Made by a program: the position numbers and the translations under genes. 64,000 nucleotides of DNA, taken from an uncultured Pelagibacteraceae bacterium (GTDB lineage Bacteria; Pseudomonadota; Alphaproteobacteria; Pelagibacterales; Pelagibacteraceae). Under the pieces are notes generated by a model that saw only the letters and a program-made list of their open reading frames with translations, made no database searches and was not told the DNA's origin. This document shows, piece by piece, positions 12,811 to 40,518 of the stretch. The stretch covers positions 12,837-76,836 of the forward strand of contig CABYJS010000003.1 of the NCBI GenBank assembly GCA_902519375.1, read 5' to 3'. The stretch's first letter is position 1, and each line of letters opens with the position of its first letter.

Positions 12811-13814
12811 TGGTAATAGTTTAGATACCATTTTATAAATTTTTTAATTCCAATTTTATAATTAGTTTTTGGGTTATAACCTGTAATTCTCTTTAACAAA
12901 GAGCTATCAGATAAAGTTGAATGAACATCTCCTTTTTGCATAGGCATGTAATTTTTTTTAATCTTTTTACCTAATTCTTTCTCTAAAGTATTGATGAAAT
13001 CAAGCAAATATACTTTTTTCGTATTTCCAATATTTAAAACTCTAAAAGGTGCTACAGAGGACAGACTATCATTTTTAAATTTTTTTTTAGAATTTAGAGA
13101 AGGAGCTTTATTTAGTAATTTATAAATCCCGTCTATAATATCATCAATATAAGTATAATCTCTATACATCTTACCTCTATTAAATATGTCAATTTTTTTA
13201 CTTTTTAAAATATTTTTTGTAAATTTAAAGTAAGCCATATCAGGTCTTCCGTAAGGACCATAAACTGTAAAAAATCTAAGCATCGTAATAGGAAGCTTCC
13301 ATAAACTTGAGTACGAGTGGGCTAGACTCTCAGTAGATTTTTTTGTTGCAGCATAAAAGCTAATTTGGTGATCTGTTTTATCTATTTCTTGAAAAGGAAT
13401 TTTTTTGTTAGCACCATAAACCGATGAGCTTGATCCAATAATTAAATGCTTAACTCTAATCTTATTAGCAATTTTTATTATATTAAAAGTTCCAAATATG
13501 TTTGAATTCAAATAAACATCTGGATTTACTATACTATACCTAACCCCAGCTTGTGCAGCTAAATGAATTATAATCGAAGGTTTGAATTTTAATACTGACT
13601 GATTGAGTAATTTTTGGTTTTCGAGCAAACCTTTTGTAAAAGAAAAATTTTTAAATTTTTTTAAAATATTTAGCCTATTTTTTTTTAAGCGAGAATCATA
13701 ATAATTATTCATAGAGTCAAATCCATGAACCTTAATTCCTTTATTTAAAAACTTTTTTGCAGCATGAAATCCAATAAATCCAGCAGCACCAGTAATATAT
13801 ATTTTAGATTTCAT
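12807..13814 (-). CDS. NAD-dependent nucleotide-sugar epimerase (UDP-glucuronate 4-epimerase type)
   Basis: TGAAGFIG, HLAAQAGVRYS, YAATKK, RFFTVYGPYGRPDMA. Confidence 0.9.
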   Translation of the reverse strand: MKSKIYITGAAGFIGFHAAKKFLNKGIKVHGFDSMNNYYDSRLKKNRLNILKKFKNFSFTKGLLENQKLLNQSVLKFKPSIIIHLAAQAGVRYSIVNPDVYLNSNIFGTFNIIKIANKIRVKHLIIGSSSSVYGANKKIPFQEIDKTDHQISFYAATKKSTESLAHSYSSLWKLPITMLRFFTVYGPYGRPDMAYFKFTKNILKSKKIDIFNRGKMYRDYTYIDDIIDGIYKLLNKAPSLNSKKKFKNDSLSSVAPFRVLNIGNTKKVYLLDFINTLEKELGKKIKKNYMPMQKGDVHSTLSDSSLLKRITGYNPKTNYKIGIKKFIKWYLNYYH

Positions 13815-29506: not shown

Positions 29507-29947
29507 ATGCCAACTTACACTGTAACAAATTCAAATTTTAACTTATCCTCAAAACAACAAAAGAATTTAGCTGAGGGAATAACTAAAGTTCACAATGTAG
29601 TTACAGGGGCTAATACTTATTTTGCACAAGTTATATTTAATAAAACTAAAAAAAATAATCATTTTATGGGAGGTAAAAAAGTAAAAGAACCATCCATGTT
29701 TTTATTGGGTCAAATTAGAGCTGGACGATCAAAAGAAGTAAAAGACAAATTAATTTCAGATTTAAAAGATGTGATGGTAAAAAATTCCAAATTAGATGAA
29801 ACCCAAATTTGGGTTTACATAAATGATCTTCCACCATCTCAGATGATTGAATATGGAGCGGTTTTACCAGAATCAGGTAAAGAGAGCGAGTGGTTTACAA
29901 ACTTATCACCGAAACTTAAGAAAAAACTCTCTGCAATTGAAAATTAG
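29507..29947 (+). CDS. Tautomerase superfamily, cis-CaaD/Cg10062-like
   Basis: After Met removal: P1, H28, R70, R73, Y103, E114; C-terminal EYG..LP..G.E..WF. Confidence 0.85.
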   Translation: MPTYTVTNSNFNLSSKQQKNLAEGITKVHNVVTGANTYFAQVIFNKTKKNNHFMGGKKVKEPSMFLLGQIRAGRSKEVKDKLISDLKDVMVKNSKLDETQIWVYINDLPPSQMIEYGAVLPESGKESEWFTNLSPKLKKKLSAIEN

Positions 29948-32685: not shown

Positions 32686-33222
32686 ATGGCTAGAGTAACA
32701 GTAGAAGATTGCATAGATAAAGTAGATAGTCCCTACGAATTAGTTTTGGTTGCAAAAGAAAGAGCAACACAACTTAACGCAGGATTAGAGCCAACTTTAG
32801 AAAAAGATAACGATAAAAATACAGTCATCTCATTAAGAGAAATTGCTGAAGAAAACATTAAAGTTTCTGATTTAACAGATAGCGCAATATATAAACTTAG
32901 AAAACATGTAGAACAAGTAGAAGATGGTACTGATGATGATGAAGAAGTGGGTGATGATTTTGAAAGCATGTATAAAGGTGAAATTTCTAAAAGTGGCGCT
33001 CCAATACTACCTTCAAAAAGAGCAAGAAAATCTCCAGAAAAAATTCAAGTTTCAAAAGAAGATTTAGCAGAACTATCTGAGACAGCTAAACCGGATATAG
33101 AAAATTCAGATGGTGATGAAACAGGTACAGATGAGGGAGATCTTTCTTTAGAACAAGTATCAGAAGCTGAGGAACAGACAACCGAAACTAATTCTGATGA
33201 TAACGAACCAAACAACAGCTAA
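32686..33222 (+). CDS. rpoZ: RNA polymerase omega subunit with an acidic C-terminal tail
   Basis: MARVTVEDC...[11 protein letters not shown]...[12 protein letters not shown]. Confidence 0.95.
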
Positions 33223-34361
33223 CTAAATTCTTTTAATATTTTTTCCCTGTGTTCATCTAAGTCAGGAATATCACCTCGTACCTTTTCATCTTTATAAGAG
33301 GACATTTTGATTGGATTACCTGCTAATTTAAAATCACCTATAACTTTATGATAAGCTTTAACAATCATATTTCGAGATTCAACTTGAGGATTTTCAACTG
33401 CTTCTTTAATATTAAATATTGGTCCACAAGGAATTTTTTCTTTTTCCATAGATTTAACCCATTCATCAGTATTTTTTGTAGATAACTTATTCTCAAGAAT
33501 TTTTTTTAGTTCGTCTATATTTATTGCTCTTGAGGAATTGTCTAAAAATTTTGAATCCTTAGCTAATTCTGAAATATTTAAAAGATTACAAAGTTTTTCA
33601 AATAATTTATCGTTACCTGCAGCAATTATAATATGACTATCTCTAGTTTTAAAAGCTTCAAAAGGTGCAATTGATGGATGACGAGAACCCATAGGTTTGG
33701 GGATTTCATTTTTTGAAAGATAACGTGCTATAGCGTTCTCTAAAATTGCTATTTGACAATCAAGCATAGAGACATCAATGTACATTCCTTTGCCGGTCTT
33801 TTGTCTATCGTATAGAGCAGCATTAATACCAATTGTAGTAAATAATCCTGCAGTAATATCTCCTATAGAAGTTCCAACTCTTGTTGGTTCAGAATTAGGT
33901 TGACCAGTTACACTCATTAAACCTCCCATACCTTGAACAACCATGTCATATGCAGGTAATTCTTTTAAAGGACCAGTTTGTCCAAAACCAGAGGCTGATG
34001 CATAAATTAATTTTGGATATTTTTTACAAACATCTTTCCAACCGTATCCCCATCTTTCGAGGGTTCCAGGTTTAAAATTTTCTACTAATATGTCTGCTTT
34101 AGATAAAATTTTATCAAAAATTTTTTTATCATCAGTATTTTTTAAATTAAGTGCAATACTTTCCTTACCTCTATTTAAAGACATAAAATAAGCAGAATAA
34201 TCTTTAATAAATGGTCCAAATTTTCTAGAGTCATCACCAATTTCTGGTGCCTCCACTTTAATAACTCTTGCACCTAAATCAGACAATACCATAGTACAGT
34301 AGGGTCCTACCAATACTCTCGTTAAATCAATAACTAGTAGGTTTTTTAAAGGTCCATCCAT
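33219..34361 (-). CDS. Class III (CaiB/BaiF) CoA-transferase, YfdE/UctC-like
   Basis: GP....[32 protein letters not shown] (catalytic Asp), [19 protein letters not shown]. Confidence 0.9.
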
Positions 34362-34393
34362 AATTTAAGCTTTAATAAATTCTTTTTGTCGAC

Positions 34394-34422
34394 TTGACTC
34401 TTATTAATAAGTTCATTTTAAT
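34394..34422 (+). promoter_or_regulatory. Putative sigma70 promoter of the TRAP operon, with a palindrome in the spacer
   Basis: TTGACT-17 bp-TTTAAT; the spacer contains CTTATTAATAAG (34400-34411). Confidence 0.55.
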
Positions 34423-34457
34423 TGAATTATTAAAAATAACAATAGAGGGAAATAATA

Positions 34458-35468
34458 ATGTTAAAAAAAATATCTTTATACTTAACTTCATTAGTTTTTG
34501 TTTTCACAACTATTGGTTCTGCTTTTGCTATAACATTAAAAGCTAGTCACCAATGGCCTGGAACTCCAAGGGCTGATGGATCATTTGACCCACGACACGA
34601 AATGGTTCAAATTATTGCTGACGAAGTAAAAAAAGCAAATGTTGGAATAGATGTAAGAATTTATCCAGCTAAATCATTATATAAACCAAAAGAACAGTGG
34701 AAACCAATGACAACTGGTCAGTTGGATATTTCTGCATTCCCATTAGCATATGCATCAAAGTTCCATCCTGAGTTTGACGCAACGTTAATGCCGGGAACTG
34801 TAAAAAACCACAAACACGCACTAAGATTTAATAAAGGTCCTATGATGACTGAAATTAAAAACATAATTAATAGCGCTGGTGTTGTAGTTTTATCTGATGC
34901 TTGGTTAGGTGGTGGTTTTGCTTCAAAAACAAAATGTATCAAAAATCCTAGCGATGCAAAAGGACAAGTAATGAGAGCTGCTGGTAAAGCATTTAATCAA
35001 ATGTTAGAAGCAGCAGGAGCGGGTATTCAAAGTATGCCATCATCTGAAATTTATACTGGTTTACAAACTGGTGTATTAACAGGTGCGAACACGAGCTCAG
35101 GTAGTTTTGTTAGTTACAAAATATATGAGCAAGTTTCATGTGCAACTCCTCCAGGAAAATTTGGTTTATGGTTTATGTATGAGCCAATTCTTATGTCTAA
35201 AAAGTCTTTTGATGCTTTAAATTCTAAGCAACAAAAAGCTTTAATGAAAGCTGGAAAAGTTGCTGAAAAGTACATGACAGCACAAGTAGAAAACTTAGAT
35301 AAAAAGTTTGAAGACGCTTATAAAGCGGCTGGTGTTAAGTTAGTGTATATGAATGCAAAAGATCATGCTGCTTGGGTAGAGATTGCTAAGAAATCTTCAC
35401 ACAAGGCGTTTGCTGATAAAGTGCCAGGTGGCGATAAGCTAATGGAAATGGCTTTAGCAGTTAAATAA
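34458..35468 (+). CDS. dctP: TRAP substrate-binding protein (malonate MatP-like by recall)
   Basis: Signal peptide, LKASHQWPG, MRAAG (conserved Arg), SEIYTGLQTGVL, WFMYEP. Confidence 0.85.
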   Translation: MLKKISLYLTSLVFVFTTIGSAFAITLKASHQWPGTPRADGSFDPRHEMVQIIADEVKKANVGIDVRIYPAKSLYKPKEQWKPMTTGQLDISAFPLAYASKFHPEFDATLMPGTVKNHKHALRFNKGPMMTEIKNIINSAGVVVLSDAWLGGGFASKTKCIKNPSDAKGQVMRAAGKAFNQMLEAAGAGIQSMPSSEIYTGLQTGVLTGANTSSGSFVSYKIYEQVSCATPPGKFGLWFMYEPILMSKKSFDALNSKQQKALMKAGKVAEKYMTAQVENLDKKFEDAYKAAGVKLVYMNAKDHAAWVEIAKKSSHKAFADKVPGGDKLMEMALAVK

Positions 35469-35482
35469 AATAATATATAAAG

Positions 35483-35518
35483 AACCCCTATTTATTCTTT
35501 TTAAGTAGGGGTTTTTTT
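35483..35518 (+). terminator. Stem-loop with U-tract after dctP
   Basis: aacccctattta...taagtaggggtt followed by a T run that ends at the dctQ start codon. Confidence 0.7.
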
Positions 35519-36013
35519 ATGAAAAATAAATATCTTAAATTTTGCGATTATGTTGCAAAAGCATGTGGTGCTTTCGCAGTTTCAGCTTTACTCCTATCAA
35601 TTTTAGTTATCGTAGAGCTTGTATTTGAAAGATATTTTTTTCAAAGAGCAATTACTTGGCAAACAGAACTTGTGACAATGCTTTTAGTTGCCTCTACTTT
35701 TATTGGCAGTGCATACGTGCTTAGTGAAAAAGCTCATGTAAGTATGGAATGGATATATGATTTTTTATCAAAAAAAAATGTAGTGAGGTTAAAAATTTTT
35801 ACATCTCTTTTAAGTTTGTTATTTTTTTTGATTTTATTTTATTTTGGATTTATTATGGTAGAAGAGGCTTTTACTAAAAATTATTCAACTGGAACAGTCT
35901 GGGATCCACCATTGTGGATACCTTATTCTTCAATGATGTTAGGAGCTGTATTAATGATATTACAATATATAGCTGAAATTATAAAATTAATTGATGAAAA
36001 GGATTTGAATTAA
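35519..36013 (+). CDS. dctQ: TRAP small permease
   Basis: 4 TM segments, W..E, HVSME, PPLWIPY. Confidence 0.9.
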   Translation: MKNKYLKFCDYVAKACGAFAVSALLLSILVIVELVFERYFFQRAITWQTELVTMLLVASTFIGSAYVLSEKAHVSMEWIYDFLSKKNVVRLKIFTSLLSLLFFLILFYFGFIMVEEAFTKNYSTGTVWDPPLWIPYSSMMLGAVLMILQYIAEIIKLIDEKDLN

Positions 36014-37344
36014 TGGATCCATTAATAATAGCTTTAATAGTAGCTGTTTTTACTTTAATAGTTCTTTTTTCAGGAATACCGATCGCTTTTGGTTTAAGTT
36101 TTGTATCAATAGTTCTTTTAGTATCATTTGAAGGATTTCAAATGTTGGATGTTTTTGCAGAAACATTTTATGCTGGACTAAATTCATTTGTTTTACTTTC
36201 AATACCAATGTTTATTTTAATGGGGATGGCGGTAGCCAATTCTCCTGCTGGAAAAGATTTATATACTGGTTTAGACAGATGGCTCTGGAGAGTCCCAGGA
36301 GGTTTAGTTATTTCTAATATAGGTGCTTGTTCAATTTTTGCCGCATTGAGTGGATCTAGTCCTGCTACATGTGCTGCAATTGGAACTATGGGAATACCCG
36401 AAATGAGAAAAAGAGGATATTCTGATCAAATAGCTACTGGAACCATTGCTGCAGGAGGCACGTTAGGAGTTTTAATTCCACCTAGTATTGTTTTAATTGT
36501 TTATGGTATTGCAACCGGCACATCAATCGGGAGATTGTTTTTATGTGGTCTTATTCCTGGATTTATGTTGGCAGGAATGTTTGCTATATGGGCTCTTATA
36601 CATAGTTATTTTATTGATAAAGATTCTGCAAAGGCTTTGAAAAATAGAACACCTCCTACTTTAAAAGAAAAACTTGAGGTATTACCAAGAATTTTACCTT
36701 TCCTAGCGATTATAGTTGGTGTCCTTTATGTTTTATATGGAGGGGTCGCTACACCATCAGAGGCATCAGGTGTAGGTGCATTTTTAGTTTTTGTTCTAAT
36801 CGCTGTTGTTTACAAAATTTATCAGCCAAAGAAAATTTGGAATATTGTTAAAGTTTCAATGAAGGAAAGTGTAATGATAATGTTTATTATTGCTGCCTCT
36901 TATCTTTTTGCATTCACTCTTTCACAACTTTACGTCACTCAGTCTTTAGCGCAAAGCATGGTAGAATTAAGTTCCAATAAATGGGTTGTATTTATCTTAA
37001 TAAATATATTCCTTTTAATAGCTGGATTCTTTTTACCGCCAGTAGCTGTTATTGTAATGACTTCAGCAATATTATTACCTGTTATAACACAGTTAGGATT
37101 TGATCCTTACTGGTTTGCAATTGTATTTACTATTAATATGGAGATAGGATTAATAACTCCACCCGTTGGATTAAATCTTTATATCATTAAAGGAATTACC
37201 CCAGATGTTAGTTTGTCAGAAATTTTAAAAGGATCTATTCCATTTATGATAATAATGGCTTTAGCTATATTAATCTTATGTATTTTTCCTGAAATAGTGA
37301 CATGGCTACCTGACAAAATAATGGGTAAACCTCTTGGATACTAA
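36013..37344 (+). CDS. dctM: TRAP large permease
   Basis: SGSSPATCAAIG, GGTLGVLIPPS, TPSEAS, GLITPPVG. Confidence 0.95.
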   Translation: MDPLIIALIVAVFTLIVLFSGIPIAFGLSFVSIVLLVSFEGFQMLDVFAETFYAGLNSFVLLSIPMFILMGMAVANSPAGKDLYTGLDRWLWRVPGGLVISNIGACSIFAALSGSSPATCAAIGTMGIPEMRKRGYSDQIATGTIAAGGTLGVLIPPSIVLIVYGIATGTSIGRLFLCGLIPGFMLAGMFAIWALIHSYFIDKDSAKALKNRTPPTLKEKLEVLPRILPFLAIIVGVLYVLYGGVATPSEASGVGAFLVFVLIAVVYKIYQPKKIWNIVKVSMKESVMIMFIIAASYLFAFTLSQLYVTQSLAQSMVELSSNKWVVFILINIFLLIAGFFLPPVAVIVMTSAILLPVITQLGFDPYWFAIVFTINMEIGLITPPVGLNLYIIKGITPDVSLSEILKGSIPFMIIMALAILILCIFPEIVTWLPDKIMGKPLGY

Positions 37345-38338
37345 AAAAAATATCAACAGAAAAGTTTCAGTTGCTCCAATGATGGATTGCACTGATAGAC
37401 ATGATCGTTTTTTTTTACGATTGATGAGCAAGAGTGTGATGCTCTATTCCGAGATGGTAGCTACTAAATCAGCTATTTATGGAGACAGAAAAAAAATTTT
37501 ATCTTACAGTCCTGAAGAAAAACCTTTAGCCCTTCAAGTAGGAGGGTCCGATAAAGATGAACTAGCTGAAGTTGCTAAAATTGCAGATGAAATGGGATAT
37601 GATGAAATTAATATCAATTTAGGCTGTCCTAGTAAAAAGGTTCAAAAAAACATGTTTGGTGCATGCTTAATGAAAGAACCAGACTTAGTAGCTGAGTGTA
37701 TAAATTCAATGGTTAATGCTTGTAAAATTCCTGTAACAGCTAAAACAAGAATAGGATTTGATGATACTGAAGAATTTGAATATCTAAATAATTTTATAAA
37801 CAAAATGAAAGATGCTGGAGCTAAAACTTTTATTTTACACGCTAGAAAAGCAATTTTAACTGGTTTATCTCCGAAACAAAATCTTAATATTCCTAAATTA
37901 AATTACAGCATGGTTTATGAAATAAAAAAAGAAAACCCTGATTTAGAAATTATTATAAATGGAGGTATTACGAAAATTGGAGAGATTAATAATCATTTGA
38001 ATTTTTGTGATGGTGTTATGATAGGACGATCAATATATCAAAATCCATATTCTTTGGTCGAAATTGAAAAAGAAATATTTGATAATAAAGATAATCCCTC
38101 CAGAGAAAAAGTTGTTGAAAAACTTTTAGAATATCTAGATAAAGAGGTTAAGCTCGGAACTAAAGTTAATCACATAATGAGACATACAGTAGGGCTATAT
38201 CACGGACAAGTGGGCTCGAAACAGTGGAAAAGATATTTAAGTGACAATATGATGGCTAGGGACTCTGATTTTCAAAAGGCCAAACACATAATGACTATTG
38301 TTCAAAATAATGAAAAGGCAAATCAAGCTACTTCTTAA
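37334..38338 (+). CDS. dusA: tRNA dihydrouridine(20/20a) synthase
   Basis: VAPMMDCTDRH, NLGCPS, FGACLM, HARKA..GLSPKQN, INGG. Confidence 0.9.
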   Translation: MDTKKNINRKVSVAPMMDCTDRHDRFFLRLMSKSVMLYSEMVATKSAIYGDRKKILSYSPEEKPLALQVGGSDKDELAEVAKIADEMGYDEININLGCPSKKVQKNMFGACLMKEPDLVAECINSMVNACKIPVTAKTRIGFDDTEEFEYLNNFINKMKDAGAKTFILHARKAILTGLSPKQNLNIPKLNYSMVYEIKKENPDLEIIINGGITKIGEINNHLNFCDGVMIGRSIYQNPYSLVEIEKEIFDNKDNPSREKVVEKLLEYLDKEVKLGTKVNHIMRHTVGLYHGQVGSKQWKRYLSDNMMARDSDFQKAKHIMTIVQNNEKANQATS

Positions 38339-39174
38339 TGGAAATAATAAATTCAGGTGAATTAATTAATTTACTAGCAGTATTAGCTGTTGCAGCAGCA
38401 GTAGCTGGCTTTATGGCTGGACTTCTAGGTGTAGGAGGGGGAATAATAATGGTACCAGCTCTTTATTACGCTTTTACAGTTTTAGATTTTGATATTGTAA
38501 CACGTATGCATTTATCTGTTGGAACTTCCCTAGCAATAATTATTCCGACATCAATAATCTCAACTAAAACTCATATGGAATATGATGCGGTAGATTTTAA
38601 AATGGTAAAGTCATTTGGTATTTTTATTCTATTAGGAGTAATTGCTGGAACTTTTTTAGCTGTAAACTTAAAAACACCTGCTTTAGTTTTATTTTTTTCA
38701 GTATTTGCATTTATTGTAGGATTATTTTTCATTTTTGTTAGAGAAAAACTTATGGAAAATCCAAAAAAAATATCTGATCTAATTAAAAATATTTCTGGAG
38801 TTATAATTGGTTTCATTTCTGTCCCACTTGGAATAGGAGGTGGTTCATTAATGGTTCCATTCATGAGAACTTTTGGTTACGACATAAGAAAATCTATAGG
38901 CACGGCAGCTGCTGTAGGCTTTTTGATAGCTCTAAGTGGAACAATCACAATGATAACAGGTGGGAAAATAATCGATAACGTTAATACTCCTTATAGCGTT
39001 GGGTATATAAATTTACTGGGTTTTATTGTATTTGTTCCTGTGACGATGATTATGGCTAGAATTGGCGCCAAAGCAGTGTATAAAATTAACAAAAAATTAT
39101 TAAGTAAGATTTTTGGAACTTTTCTTATTTTAGTTTCTATAAGATCTTTTTTTGAATATTTATCAATTAATTAA
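38338..39174 (+). CDS. TauE/SafE (TSUP) family permease
   Basis: GLLGVGGGIIMVP and GIGGGSLMVP repeats, GTSLA. Confidence 0.9.
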   Translation: MEIINSGELINLLAVLAVAAAVAGFMAGLLGVGGGIIMVPALYYAFTVLDFDIVTRMHLSVGTSLAIIIPTSIISTKTHMEYDAVDFKMVKSFGIFILLGVIAGTFLAVNLKTPALVLFFSVFAFIVGLFFIFVREKLMENPKKISDLIKNISGVIIGFISVPLGIGGGSLMVPFMRTFGYDIRKSIGTAAAVGFLIALSGTITMITGGKIIDNVNTPYSVGYINLLGFIVFVPVTMIMARIGAKAVYKINKKLLSKIFGTFLILVSIRSFFEYLSIN

Positions 39175-39183
39175 TAATTAAGA

Positions 39184-40518
39184 TTGTTGCTTAATAGGGG
39201 TGCTTTTGTGTTTAACTTAAAGGAAATTATATCTTCAATTGCTGACGTAGGCCAAAAACTATTCAAAAAAAGCGTAGTCAAGAAAAATGACTTAGAGTCA
39301 ATAATCTCACTATGTGATGATTTAATTTCAAACAAAGGAGCAGCATTTGGGATTACTGTAGCAAGAGATATTACCGATTTATATCAAACATTAAGCCATG
39401 AAAAAAAATTATTATTCTTTAAAAAAATTAATGAAAGGTTTAAACCTAATCATTCAAAGGTTTCTGAGGCTATAAATCTCTATAAAACAGAAGAAAATGA
39501 TAAAAACCTTTTCAAGCTATTCATTACCGCAGAGGGTCAAAGAAGGGAATTATTTAGAAGAATGAATATGTCTCCTAATGGAATTTCAACAATTGTTTCA
39601 TTGAGAGAAGATCTTCTTAAAATTTTAAATGAAAATAGAGAATTAAAACCATTAGATAATGATTTAAGAGAGTTGTTTAAATCTTGGTTTAATCCTGGGT
39701 TTCTAAAACTTGCAAAGATTACTTGGGATACTAAAGCTGCAGTTTTAGAAAAAATCATTCAGTACGAAAGAGTACATAAAATAAAAGATATGAACGAACT
39801 TAAAAGAAGACTTGGAGAGGATAGAAGATTTTTTTCTTATTTTCATCCTGCATTAGAGGATGAACCAATAATATTTGTTCAAGTAGCACTTACAAACGGT
39901 TTAGGAAAATCTATTCAAGAAATAATGAAGCCTAGAACTGAAGGAGAAAAAAAATATGATACTGCTACCTTTTATTCAATAAGTAATTGTCAAGAAGGTC
40001 TTTCTAGAGTAACGCTTGGAAACTTCTTAATTAAAAGAGTTGTTTATGAAATTCAGGAAGAGTTACCTAATATTAAAAACTTCGGTACACTTTCTCCAAT
40101 CCCAGGATTTAGAGACTGGTTTACAACATTGGATGAAAGTATTATCAAGAATATTTTGGGTAAAATACCTTATACAAATATTTCATTTTTAAAAAACTCG
40201 AATTTAAAAATAGGTGATGGAAGAATTGTATCTAATAAGAATGCTATAATTAAATTGGTTGCTCATTACTTAATAAACGAAAAAAATAAAAAAAATCTTC
40301 CAATTAACGATGTTTGTAGATTTCATTTAGGAAATGGTGCAATAGTTGATGATATTATTATTAATGCGAATGTTTCAGAGGTTGGTTTTAATAGGTCTTT
40401 TGGAGTTATGGTAAATTACCTATATGAATTAAAGAATATCGAAAAAAACCATGAAGATTATATAAACAATAAAAAAATTATTGTTTCTGATAAACTAAAA
40501 AAACTAATACAATTTTAA
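39184..40518 (+). CDS. Malonyl-CoA decarboxylase (start possibly the GTG at 39208)
   Basis: SWFNPGFL, YERVH, FFSYFHPA..DEPIIFVQVAL, FYSISNCQ.GL, GNFLIKRV, TLSPIPGF, FHLGNGA, SFGVMVNYLY. Confidence 0.9.
   Translation: MLLNRGAFVFNLKEIISSIADVGQKLFKKSVVKKNDLESIISLCDDLISNKGAAFGITVARDITDLYQTLSHEKKLLFFKKINERFKPNHSKVSEAINLYKTEENDKNLFKLFITAEGQRRELFRRMNMSPNGISTIVSLREDLLKILNENRELKPLDNDLRELFKSWFNPGFLKLAKITWDTKAAVLEKIIQYERVHKIKDMNELKRRLGEDRRFFSYFHPALEDEPIIFVQVALTNGLGKSIQEIMKPRTEGEKKYDTATFYSISNCQEGLSRVTLGNFLIKRVVYEIQEELPNIKNFGTLSPIPGFRDWFTTLDESIIKNILGKIPYTNISFLKNSNLKIGDGRIVSNKNAIIKLVAHYLINEKNKKNLPINDVCRFHLGNGAIVDDIIINANVSEVGFNRSFGVMVNYLYELKNIEKNHEDYINNKKIIVSDKLKKLIQF

Follow-up and report, generated by a model that had tools for sequence, protein, structure and literature searches.

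How might malonate be converted to malonyl-CoA in a bacterium that encodes a malonate-type transporter and a malonyl-CoA decarboxylase (MCD) and lacks the malonyl-CoA synthetase MatB? The question is raised by a locus in a 64,000-nucleotide stretch of DNA (hereafter the window; positions 12,837–76,836 of contig CABYJS010000003.1, assembly GCA_902519375.1) from an uncultured member of the Pelagibacteraceae. This family belongs to SAR11, the most abundant heterotrophs of the surface ocean, whose use of small organic acids is still being worked out. At positions 33219–40518 of the window, a gene for a class III coenzyme A (CoA)-transferase is divergent from a run of six genes, dctP-dctQ-dctM-dusA-tauE-MCD, the first three of which encode a transporter of the tripartite ATP-independent periplasmic (TRAP) type. 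The first-pass annotation of this DNA proposed that malonate is taken up by the transporter, activated by CoA transfer and decarboxylated, in a cycle resembling that of Frc and Oxc. The core of this idea is backed by the orthology of the transporter, the absence of MatB, co-inheritance and adjacency of the genes and protein fusions in other organisms, whereas a strict three-part unit is not. We consider it probable (roughly 0.7) that the locus is a module for malonate uptake and catabolism in which a class III CoA-transferase takes the place of MatB.

Transporter, decarboxylase and the missing synthetase

The TRAP genes comprise dctP (34458–35468, + strand; PF03480) for the substrate-binding protein (SBP), dctQ (35519–36013, + strand; PF04290) for the small permease and dctM (36013–37344, + strand; PF06808, 317 bits; TIGR00786 above cut-off) for the large permease. 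Their closest known counterpart is matPQMAB of Sinorhizobium meliloti, whose TRAP system has been reported to be an efficient malonate transporter (PMC12799670). On S. meliloti pSymA the annotated order is a GntR regulator followed by dctP-dctQ-(dctM)-malonyl-CoA decarboxylase-malonyl-CoA synthase. The window SBP is 57% identical to the DctP encoded there (MatP), which upholds the earlier suggestion that it resembles malonate-linked DctPs, DctM is 55% identical to its counterpart, and dctQ is syntenic with the dctQ of mat operons. We also collected the neighbourhoods of 80 of the MCD matches in 331 evenly sampled alphaproteobacterial genomes. MatB lies beside MCD in 10 of these 80 loci, five of which have dctPQM-MCD with MatB; in these five the SBP is 36–66% and DctM 46–64% identical to those of the window. 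The upper values come from locus L093 (SBP up to 66%, DctM up to 64%), in which MatB is divergent from dctPQM-MCD, the very position held by the transferase in SAR11.

The closest solved relative of the SBP is Rfer_1840 of Rhodoferax ferrireducens (4mco/4mev; 197 bits, all other TRAP SBPs scoring 70 bits or less), and a fold search with an alignment-based model of the window SBP (pLDDT, predicted local distance difference test, 88.9) matched it with a Z score of 36.6 at 35% identity; a single-sequence AlphaFold model (pLDDT 37.7) was discarded. We take the ligand of Rfer_1840 to be malonate. By sequence, then, the window transporter is of the MatPQM type and orthologous to MatPQM, and from the orthology to MatP we infer that the SBP probably binds malonate.

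The MCD gene (39184–40518, + strand) encodes a full-length member of the MatA/MLYCD family with both the MCD_N (PF17408, 90.5 bits) and MCD (PF05292, 293 bits) domains. It matches the bacterial MCD structure 4ksf over residues 12–440 (307 bits) and is 38% identical to the S. meliloti enzyme.

There is no acyl-CoA synthetase in the window, as had been remarked from the sequence; the genome encodes five AMP-binding enzymes, all on other contigs, which are Acs/PrpE-like or generic acyl-CoA synthetases, and none of them is MatB. With model NF005702 (cut-off 558 bits), the best score for MatB in the genome was 74 bits; a best match in this genome with an E value of 1.4e-61 likewise fell well short of the cut-off. 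The window comes from contig 3 of an 873-kb SAR11-type assembly that is 74.7% complete. We therefore extended the search to an order-level sample of 201 genomes, 141 from the window's family and 60 from a sister family. None of the 141 family genomes, most of them 92–100% complete, scored above the cut-off, so the incompleteness of the window genome matters little. The genome-wide hunt for matB envisaged in the first-pass annotation thus came back empty, both in the 75%-complete genome and throughout the family sample.

Two observations on synthetases stand apart from this. In the sister family f2 (for example, loci L037–L040), MatB was found in 50 of the 60 genomes, MCD in 0/60 and a MatP-type SBP in 0/60; the malonyl-CoA synthetase of this family operates in the absence of the other mat operon genes. 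In genome G065 (L043:3868-6394), MCD is adjoined by an ApbA/PanE-like reductase and by an AMP-binding acyl-CoA synthetase that reaches 284 bits against the model for MatB (cut-off 558); this genome likewise has the transferase–TRAP module.

Identity of the transferase

The transferase gene (33219–34361, − strand) encodes a protein that matches PF02515 over its full length (positions 1–366 of 366, 406 bits), the domain of the class III (CaiB/BaiF) superfamily. The catalytic Asp is conserved, TSIGD being aligned with TSLAD of Escherichia coli YfdE (Asp173). Its alignment with this oxalate enzyme runs end to end (371 bits, 44% identity over 378 residues), and the HMMER alignment to 4hl6 shows every one of the YfdE motifs listed in the first-pass annotation (PAYD, RVGTS, RHP..APF, GNDKLF, GNPIK and the C-terminal LD.H...I..EFS). 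The resemblance along the whole length was therefore real, whereas orthology to YfdE was not borne out: the best NCBIfam match of the protein is indeed the YfdE model NF008511, but at 418.1 bits it lies below the equivalog cut-off of 522. The GNxH loop of YfdE (Gly230-Asn231-x-His233) has been proposed as its specificity determinant (PMC3720670). In the window protein this loop reads GSRH, with the His kept and Asn231 replaced by Ser, and the same holds for all SAR11 orthologues examined.

The genomic surroundings agree with this distinction. No Oxc was found in the genome above the cut-off (best score 124 bits vs 739), and none of oxc, frc or yfdV was found beside any of 42 homologue loci screened, namely L061, L062 and the loci of the 40 closest homologues. 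With no oxc, a sub-threshold equivalog score and a loop that departs from GNxH, a YfdE-type role in oxalate metabolism was rejected. A penicillin-amidase-family gene adjoins the transferase in 16 of the 42 alphaproteobacterial loci.

Outside SAR11, homologues with 45–61% identity are present in 94 of 328 alphaproteobacterial genomes, usually one in each, and nearly all those examined carry G[A/S]RHPS. Three tallies (108/331, 97/331 and a genome-level overlap of 48/94) rest partly on an unpublished genome, G439, which was counted as MCD-positive and transferase-positive and entered the analysis through these tallies only. In a quick tree, supported by SH-aLRT (Shimodaira–Hasegawa-like approximate likelihood ratio test) values only, the homologues are arranged largely by taxonomy, with YfdE on a long branch outside the alphaproteobacterial group.

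Fusion and adjacency of transferase and decarboxylase

The strongest evidence for a role of the transferase in malonate metabolism comes from domain fusions. A search for longer relatives retrieved 69 protein clusters of about 900 amino acids that join CoA_transf_3 to MCD_N and MCD, in the order transferase–MCD in 68 clusters and MCD–transferase in one; a Pfam scan confirmed the first architecture in P0130, P0135 and P0151 and the second in P0150. The fused transferase domain is 53–60% identical to the window protein over 99% of its length, closer than YfdE. Where YfdE has Asn231, 64 of the MCD-fused clusters have Ala, two have Ser, and Glu, Gly and Val occur in one each; none has Asn. The oxalate pair has its own single-polypeptide counterpart in P0212, P0214 and P0217 (around 990 amino acids), in which a YfdE-type GNRHP transferase is fused to a thiamine pyrophosphate (TPP) enzyme 62–64% identical to E. 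coli Oxc; these three transferases are 47–48% identical to that of the window, closer to YfdE, and all three have Asn at position 231. The fusion clusters are related to one another, and the counts thus overstate their independence. Even so, the Ser at this position places the window transferase, as far as sequence can tell, with the partners of MCD, and two domain orders together with so clean a residue split would be hard to explain unless the subfamily supplies the substrate of MCD. Separate genes tell a similar story in two further alphaproteobacterial families, in which the transferase adjoins MCD (genomes G479 and G326, and G241 and G415). Judged from these comparisons, the window protein is most likely a malonate CoA-transferase (EC 2.8.3.3) and not an oxalate enzyme.

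The same subfamily, with GSRHP or GTRHP loops and 54–58% identity to the window protein, also has members joined to an enzyme of the PALP family (PF00291) or to an aminotransferase of class I/II (PF00155); fusions of these kinds are P0138, P0143, P0145 and P0149 (around 700 amino acids) and P0128 and P0129 (around 785 amino acids). The subfamily may thus have roles beyond malonate.

Co-inheritance within SAR11

Within the window's family, the transferase and the SBP are inherited together: around 71 genomes have both and around 66 neither, two have the transferase without the SBP, the gene lying at the edge of a contig in at least one of them, and a single genome has the SBP without the transferase. 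The SAR11 transferase orthologues are 72–92% identical to that of the window, and wherever the transferase and SBP genes are co-assembled they are adjacent and divergent. In the closed genomes G134 and G144 the site is empty, rpoZ being followed directly by dusA, and the four genes for the transferase and transporter therefore behave as one block of insertion or deletion. MCD was detected in 52 family genomes, 49 of which carry the transferase. In three other genera of the family (g2, g3 and g4) the order is transferase, divergent from dctPQM-MCD-dusA, with MCD directly 3′ of dctM as in the rhizobial operons; because MCD there directly follows the permease gene, its link to the module survives a change in gene order.

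Genome G140, also closed, has SBP, MCD, dusA and tauE genes that are split or truncated and a transferase and dctM that are intact (locus L057). This could reflect decay of the module or a frameshift-prone assembly. Since dusA and tauE are also broken, which suggests assembly errors, we left G140 out as evidence of joint decay.

Evidence against the proposal and alternative explanations

A number of observations weigh against the proposal. Around 23 of the module-bearing SAR11 genomes, about a third, have no MCD, among them those nearest to the window in SBP sequence (97% identity), and the two closed genomes with an empty site (G134, L047; G144, L048) show the converse, rpoZ-dusA-tauE-like-MCD with no transferase, TRAP transporter or MatB. 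Gene order in SAR11 is conserved generally, so that adjacency inside the group is weak evidence by itself, and the sampled genomes, being related, cannot be treated as independent observations. Elsewhere in the Alphaproteobacteria the transferase adjoins MCD in just 4 of the 94 genomes that have it (two genera), most members of the subfamily are not near MCD, and the commonest neighbours in a clustering of neighbouring genes (a penicillin-amidase-family gene, hemB, fumC and hydrolases) are uninformative. Moreover, G479 and G326 hold a true MatB elsewhere in their genomes in addition to the transferase–MCD pair, and the transferase is therefore not always a replacement for MatB. Of the co-occurrence of three components across SAR11 that the first-pass annotation put up for checking, then, the pairing of transferase and TRAP transporter held, but MCD proved not to be strictly tied to them: the core unit is the transferase plus the TRAP transporter, and MCD is a frequent but dispensable addition.

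Could the transferase act on another acid, either oxalate, as YfdE does, or a different short dicarboxylate, its adjacency to a malonate transporter reflecting synteny and malonyl-CoA arising from acetyl-CoA carboxylase or from some further activating enzyme? The best curated match of the protein is an oxalate enzyme, and the scarcity of MCD beside the subfamily elsewhere fits such a view, as do the MCDs retained alone in G134 and G144 and the commonness of orphan MCDs in general, neither MatB nor the transferase being nearby in 62 of the 80 class-level loci. We nevertheless think it unlikely, given a score below the YfdE cut-off, the missing Asn of the GNxH loop and the lack of oxc both in the genome and beside the screened homologues; transferase and transporter are gained and lost as one block, and 69 fusions to MCD, in both domain orders, go beyond what synteny would produce. 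A MatB hidden in the unassembled quarter of the genome, which would make the transferase irrelevant to malonate, draws on the incomplete assembly, but it was rejected as extremely improbable on the family-wide absence of the gene: many of the 141 genomes are closed, and they include 49 others that have both the module and MCD.

A different kind of alternative accepts the link to MCD and changes the substrate or the direction. The system could handle malonate that bears a substituent, methylmalonate or ethylmalonate for instance, or the transferase could run in reverse and release malonate from malonyl-CoA. Class III transferases are reversible, the ligand of the window SBP is assigned by orthology, and a review lists EC 2.8.3.3 as acting from malonyl-CoA to malonate (PMC8307300). 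The SBP and permease, however, have their orthologues in matPQMAB operons, in which malonate is what MatB and MatA work on, and the coupling of an importer with a decarboxylase suggests a catabolic role; we regard this alternative as quite improbable. Activation of imported malonate by the transferase remains the reading that we prefer.

A proposed malonate cycle

In the cycle that we propose, malonate would be imported by the MatPQM-type transporter, and the divergently encoded transferase would move CoA from a donor thioester to malonate, giving malonyl-CoA, which MCD would convert to acetyl-CoA and CO2. The donor, like the substrate, is something we infer: most simply it would be acetyl-CoA (EC 2.8.3.3), the donor that YfdE uses, with succinyl-CoA as the alternative. 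If acetyl-CoA is the donor, the transfer (acetyl-CoA + malonate to acetate + malonyl-CoA) would be followed by a decarboxylation that regenerates it, for a net conversion of malonate to acetate and CO2, and the acetate could then be re-activated by acetyl-CoA synthetase (Acs), which the genome encodes among its AMP-binding enzymes. With succinyl-CoA, one acetyl-CoA would be gained per malonate at the cost of one thioester, which would be cheaper than the MatB route. The fusions favour acetyl-CoA recycling without proving it. The description of the pathway as ATP-independent would accordingly be true of decarboxylation to acetate, but assimilation through Acs would cost the same ATP as MatB. 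In SAR11 genomes that have the module and no MCD, malonyl-CoA could feed fatty-acid synthesis directly.

Gene layout and neighbouring genes

Gene calls were based on a listing of open reading frames and on Pfam and NCBIfam scans, and they reproduce the seven genes and the divergent layout given in the first-pass annotation. Transferase and dctP are separated by a 96-bp intergenic region read from the sequence (34362–34457). From dctQ onwards the + strand run is compact, with overlaps of 1, 11 and 1 nucleotides and one gap of 9 nucleotides, and this tight packing fits a single transcript. Scans for consensus promoters and terminators gave hits at chance level in this AT-rich DNA (30% GC), and we claim no promoter; the operon structure is therefore read from gene packing.

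Between dctM and MCD lie dusA (37334–38338, + strand; NF008774, 457 bits, cut-off 269) and a gene for a TauE/SafE-family membrane protein (38338–39174, + strand; PF01925). DusA is a housekeeping tRNA-modifying enzyme, a tRNA dihydrouridine synthase. Among the 80 class-level loci, DusA and TauE were each found near MCD in only one; in genera g2–g4 both genes lie downstream of MCD, and TauE stays beside dusA regardless of the presence of MCD, transferase or TRAP transporter. Both are probably bystanders that are co-transcribed in the window's genus. The suggestion that TauE might move a product of the pathway found no support, and a role as product exporter was rejected, TauE having no association with MCD outside SAR11.

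Two further features of the region concern gene content that varies between relatives. In four genomes of the genus, a block of around 10 kb is inserted between tauE and MCD (L042:3325-13405 in G011, with the same insert in L044, L045 and L046). Its genes encode a further TRAP system, whose SBP shows 24% identity, and a class III CoA-transferase paralogue (42% identity, loop GSAHP), together with an enoyl-CoA hydratase, an enzyme of the MR/MLE family, a class V aminotransferase and a FAD-oxidase/Fe-S/CCG protein of 967 amino acids, and the block looks like another organic-acid island dependent on a CoA-transferase. Elsewhere in the window, a gene for a cis-CaaD-like tautomerase (29507–29947) was also found in L051 and L058; L041, L049, L050 and L059 lack it at the corresponding site.

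Relation to known systems and significance

The module belongs with the known mat pathway, as a variant in which MatB has undergone non-orthologous displacement; it is no new kind of system. With matPQMAB of S. meliloti and Rhizobium it shares an orthologous TRAP transporter, an MCD of the same family and, in g2–g4, the order dctPQM-MCD. It differs in having no MatB and no GntR regulator, in the class III CoA-transferase that occupies the divergent upstream position and, in the window's genus, in the insertion of dusA and tauE between dctM and MCD. With the acetyl-CoA:oxalate CoA-transferases YfdE of E. coli and UctC of Acetobacter aceti (4hl6; PMC3720670) the transferase shares the class III fold and two residues, the catalytic Asp and the active-site loop's His, as well as, in the case of YfdE, a proposed pairing with the decarboxylase of its acyl-CoA product, which for YfdE is Oxc. 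Unlike those enzymes, however, the window's subfamily is fused to MCD, whereas the fusion partners of the GNRH-type enzymes are TPP enzymes resembling Oxc. The proposed cycle would resemble both the Frc/Oxc cycle and the malonate decarboxylase based on acyl carrier protein (MdcA as transferase, MdcD/E as decarboxylase; PMC5534430) in that a thioester is passed to a dicarboxylate and decarboxylation regenerates the donor; it would differ in using free CoA esters and unrelated proteins, with neither an acyl-carrier subunit nor a TPP enzyme. Our literature searches turned up no account of this arrangement and no paper in which malonate or EC 2.8.3.3 is assigned to a class III transferase.

The malonate CoA-transferase activity once described in Pseudomonas was later attributed to the Mdc complex. 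EC 2.8.3.3 itself goes back to that old biochemistry and has no gene in KEGG (PMC8307300). We think the odds slightly favour a broader proposal, that EC 2.8.3.3 has its missing gene in the G[A/S]RHP subfamily, which with a MatA-type MCD forms a soluble two-enzyme cycle, sometimes fused, in around half of the sampled Pelagibacter and in many other Alphaproteobacteria, and that replacement of Asn by Ala or Ser in the GNxH loop was the switch from oxalate to malonate. If this is true, the orphan EC number would gain a gene, and the residue at YfdE Asn231 would serve as a marker separating oxalate-type from malonate-type transferases, for which 'CoA:oxalate CoA-transferase' is at present a common annotation. 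It would also provide a route from malonate to malonyl-CoA without MatB, for use in engineering.

For SAR11, the distribution of the module has a more direct bearing. A population-genomic study names MCD as one of the genes of offshore Pelagibacteraceae that are differentially distributed and under strong selection (PMC12636525). In the parts available to us, a survey of binding proteins in strain HTCC1062, which covered that strain only, does not mention malonate (PMC11485210). Around half of the sampled genomes of the window's genus carry the module, which points to malonate as a SAR11 substrate absent from the HTCC1062 survey as far as those parts go.

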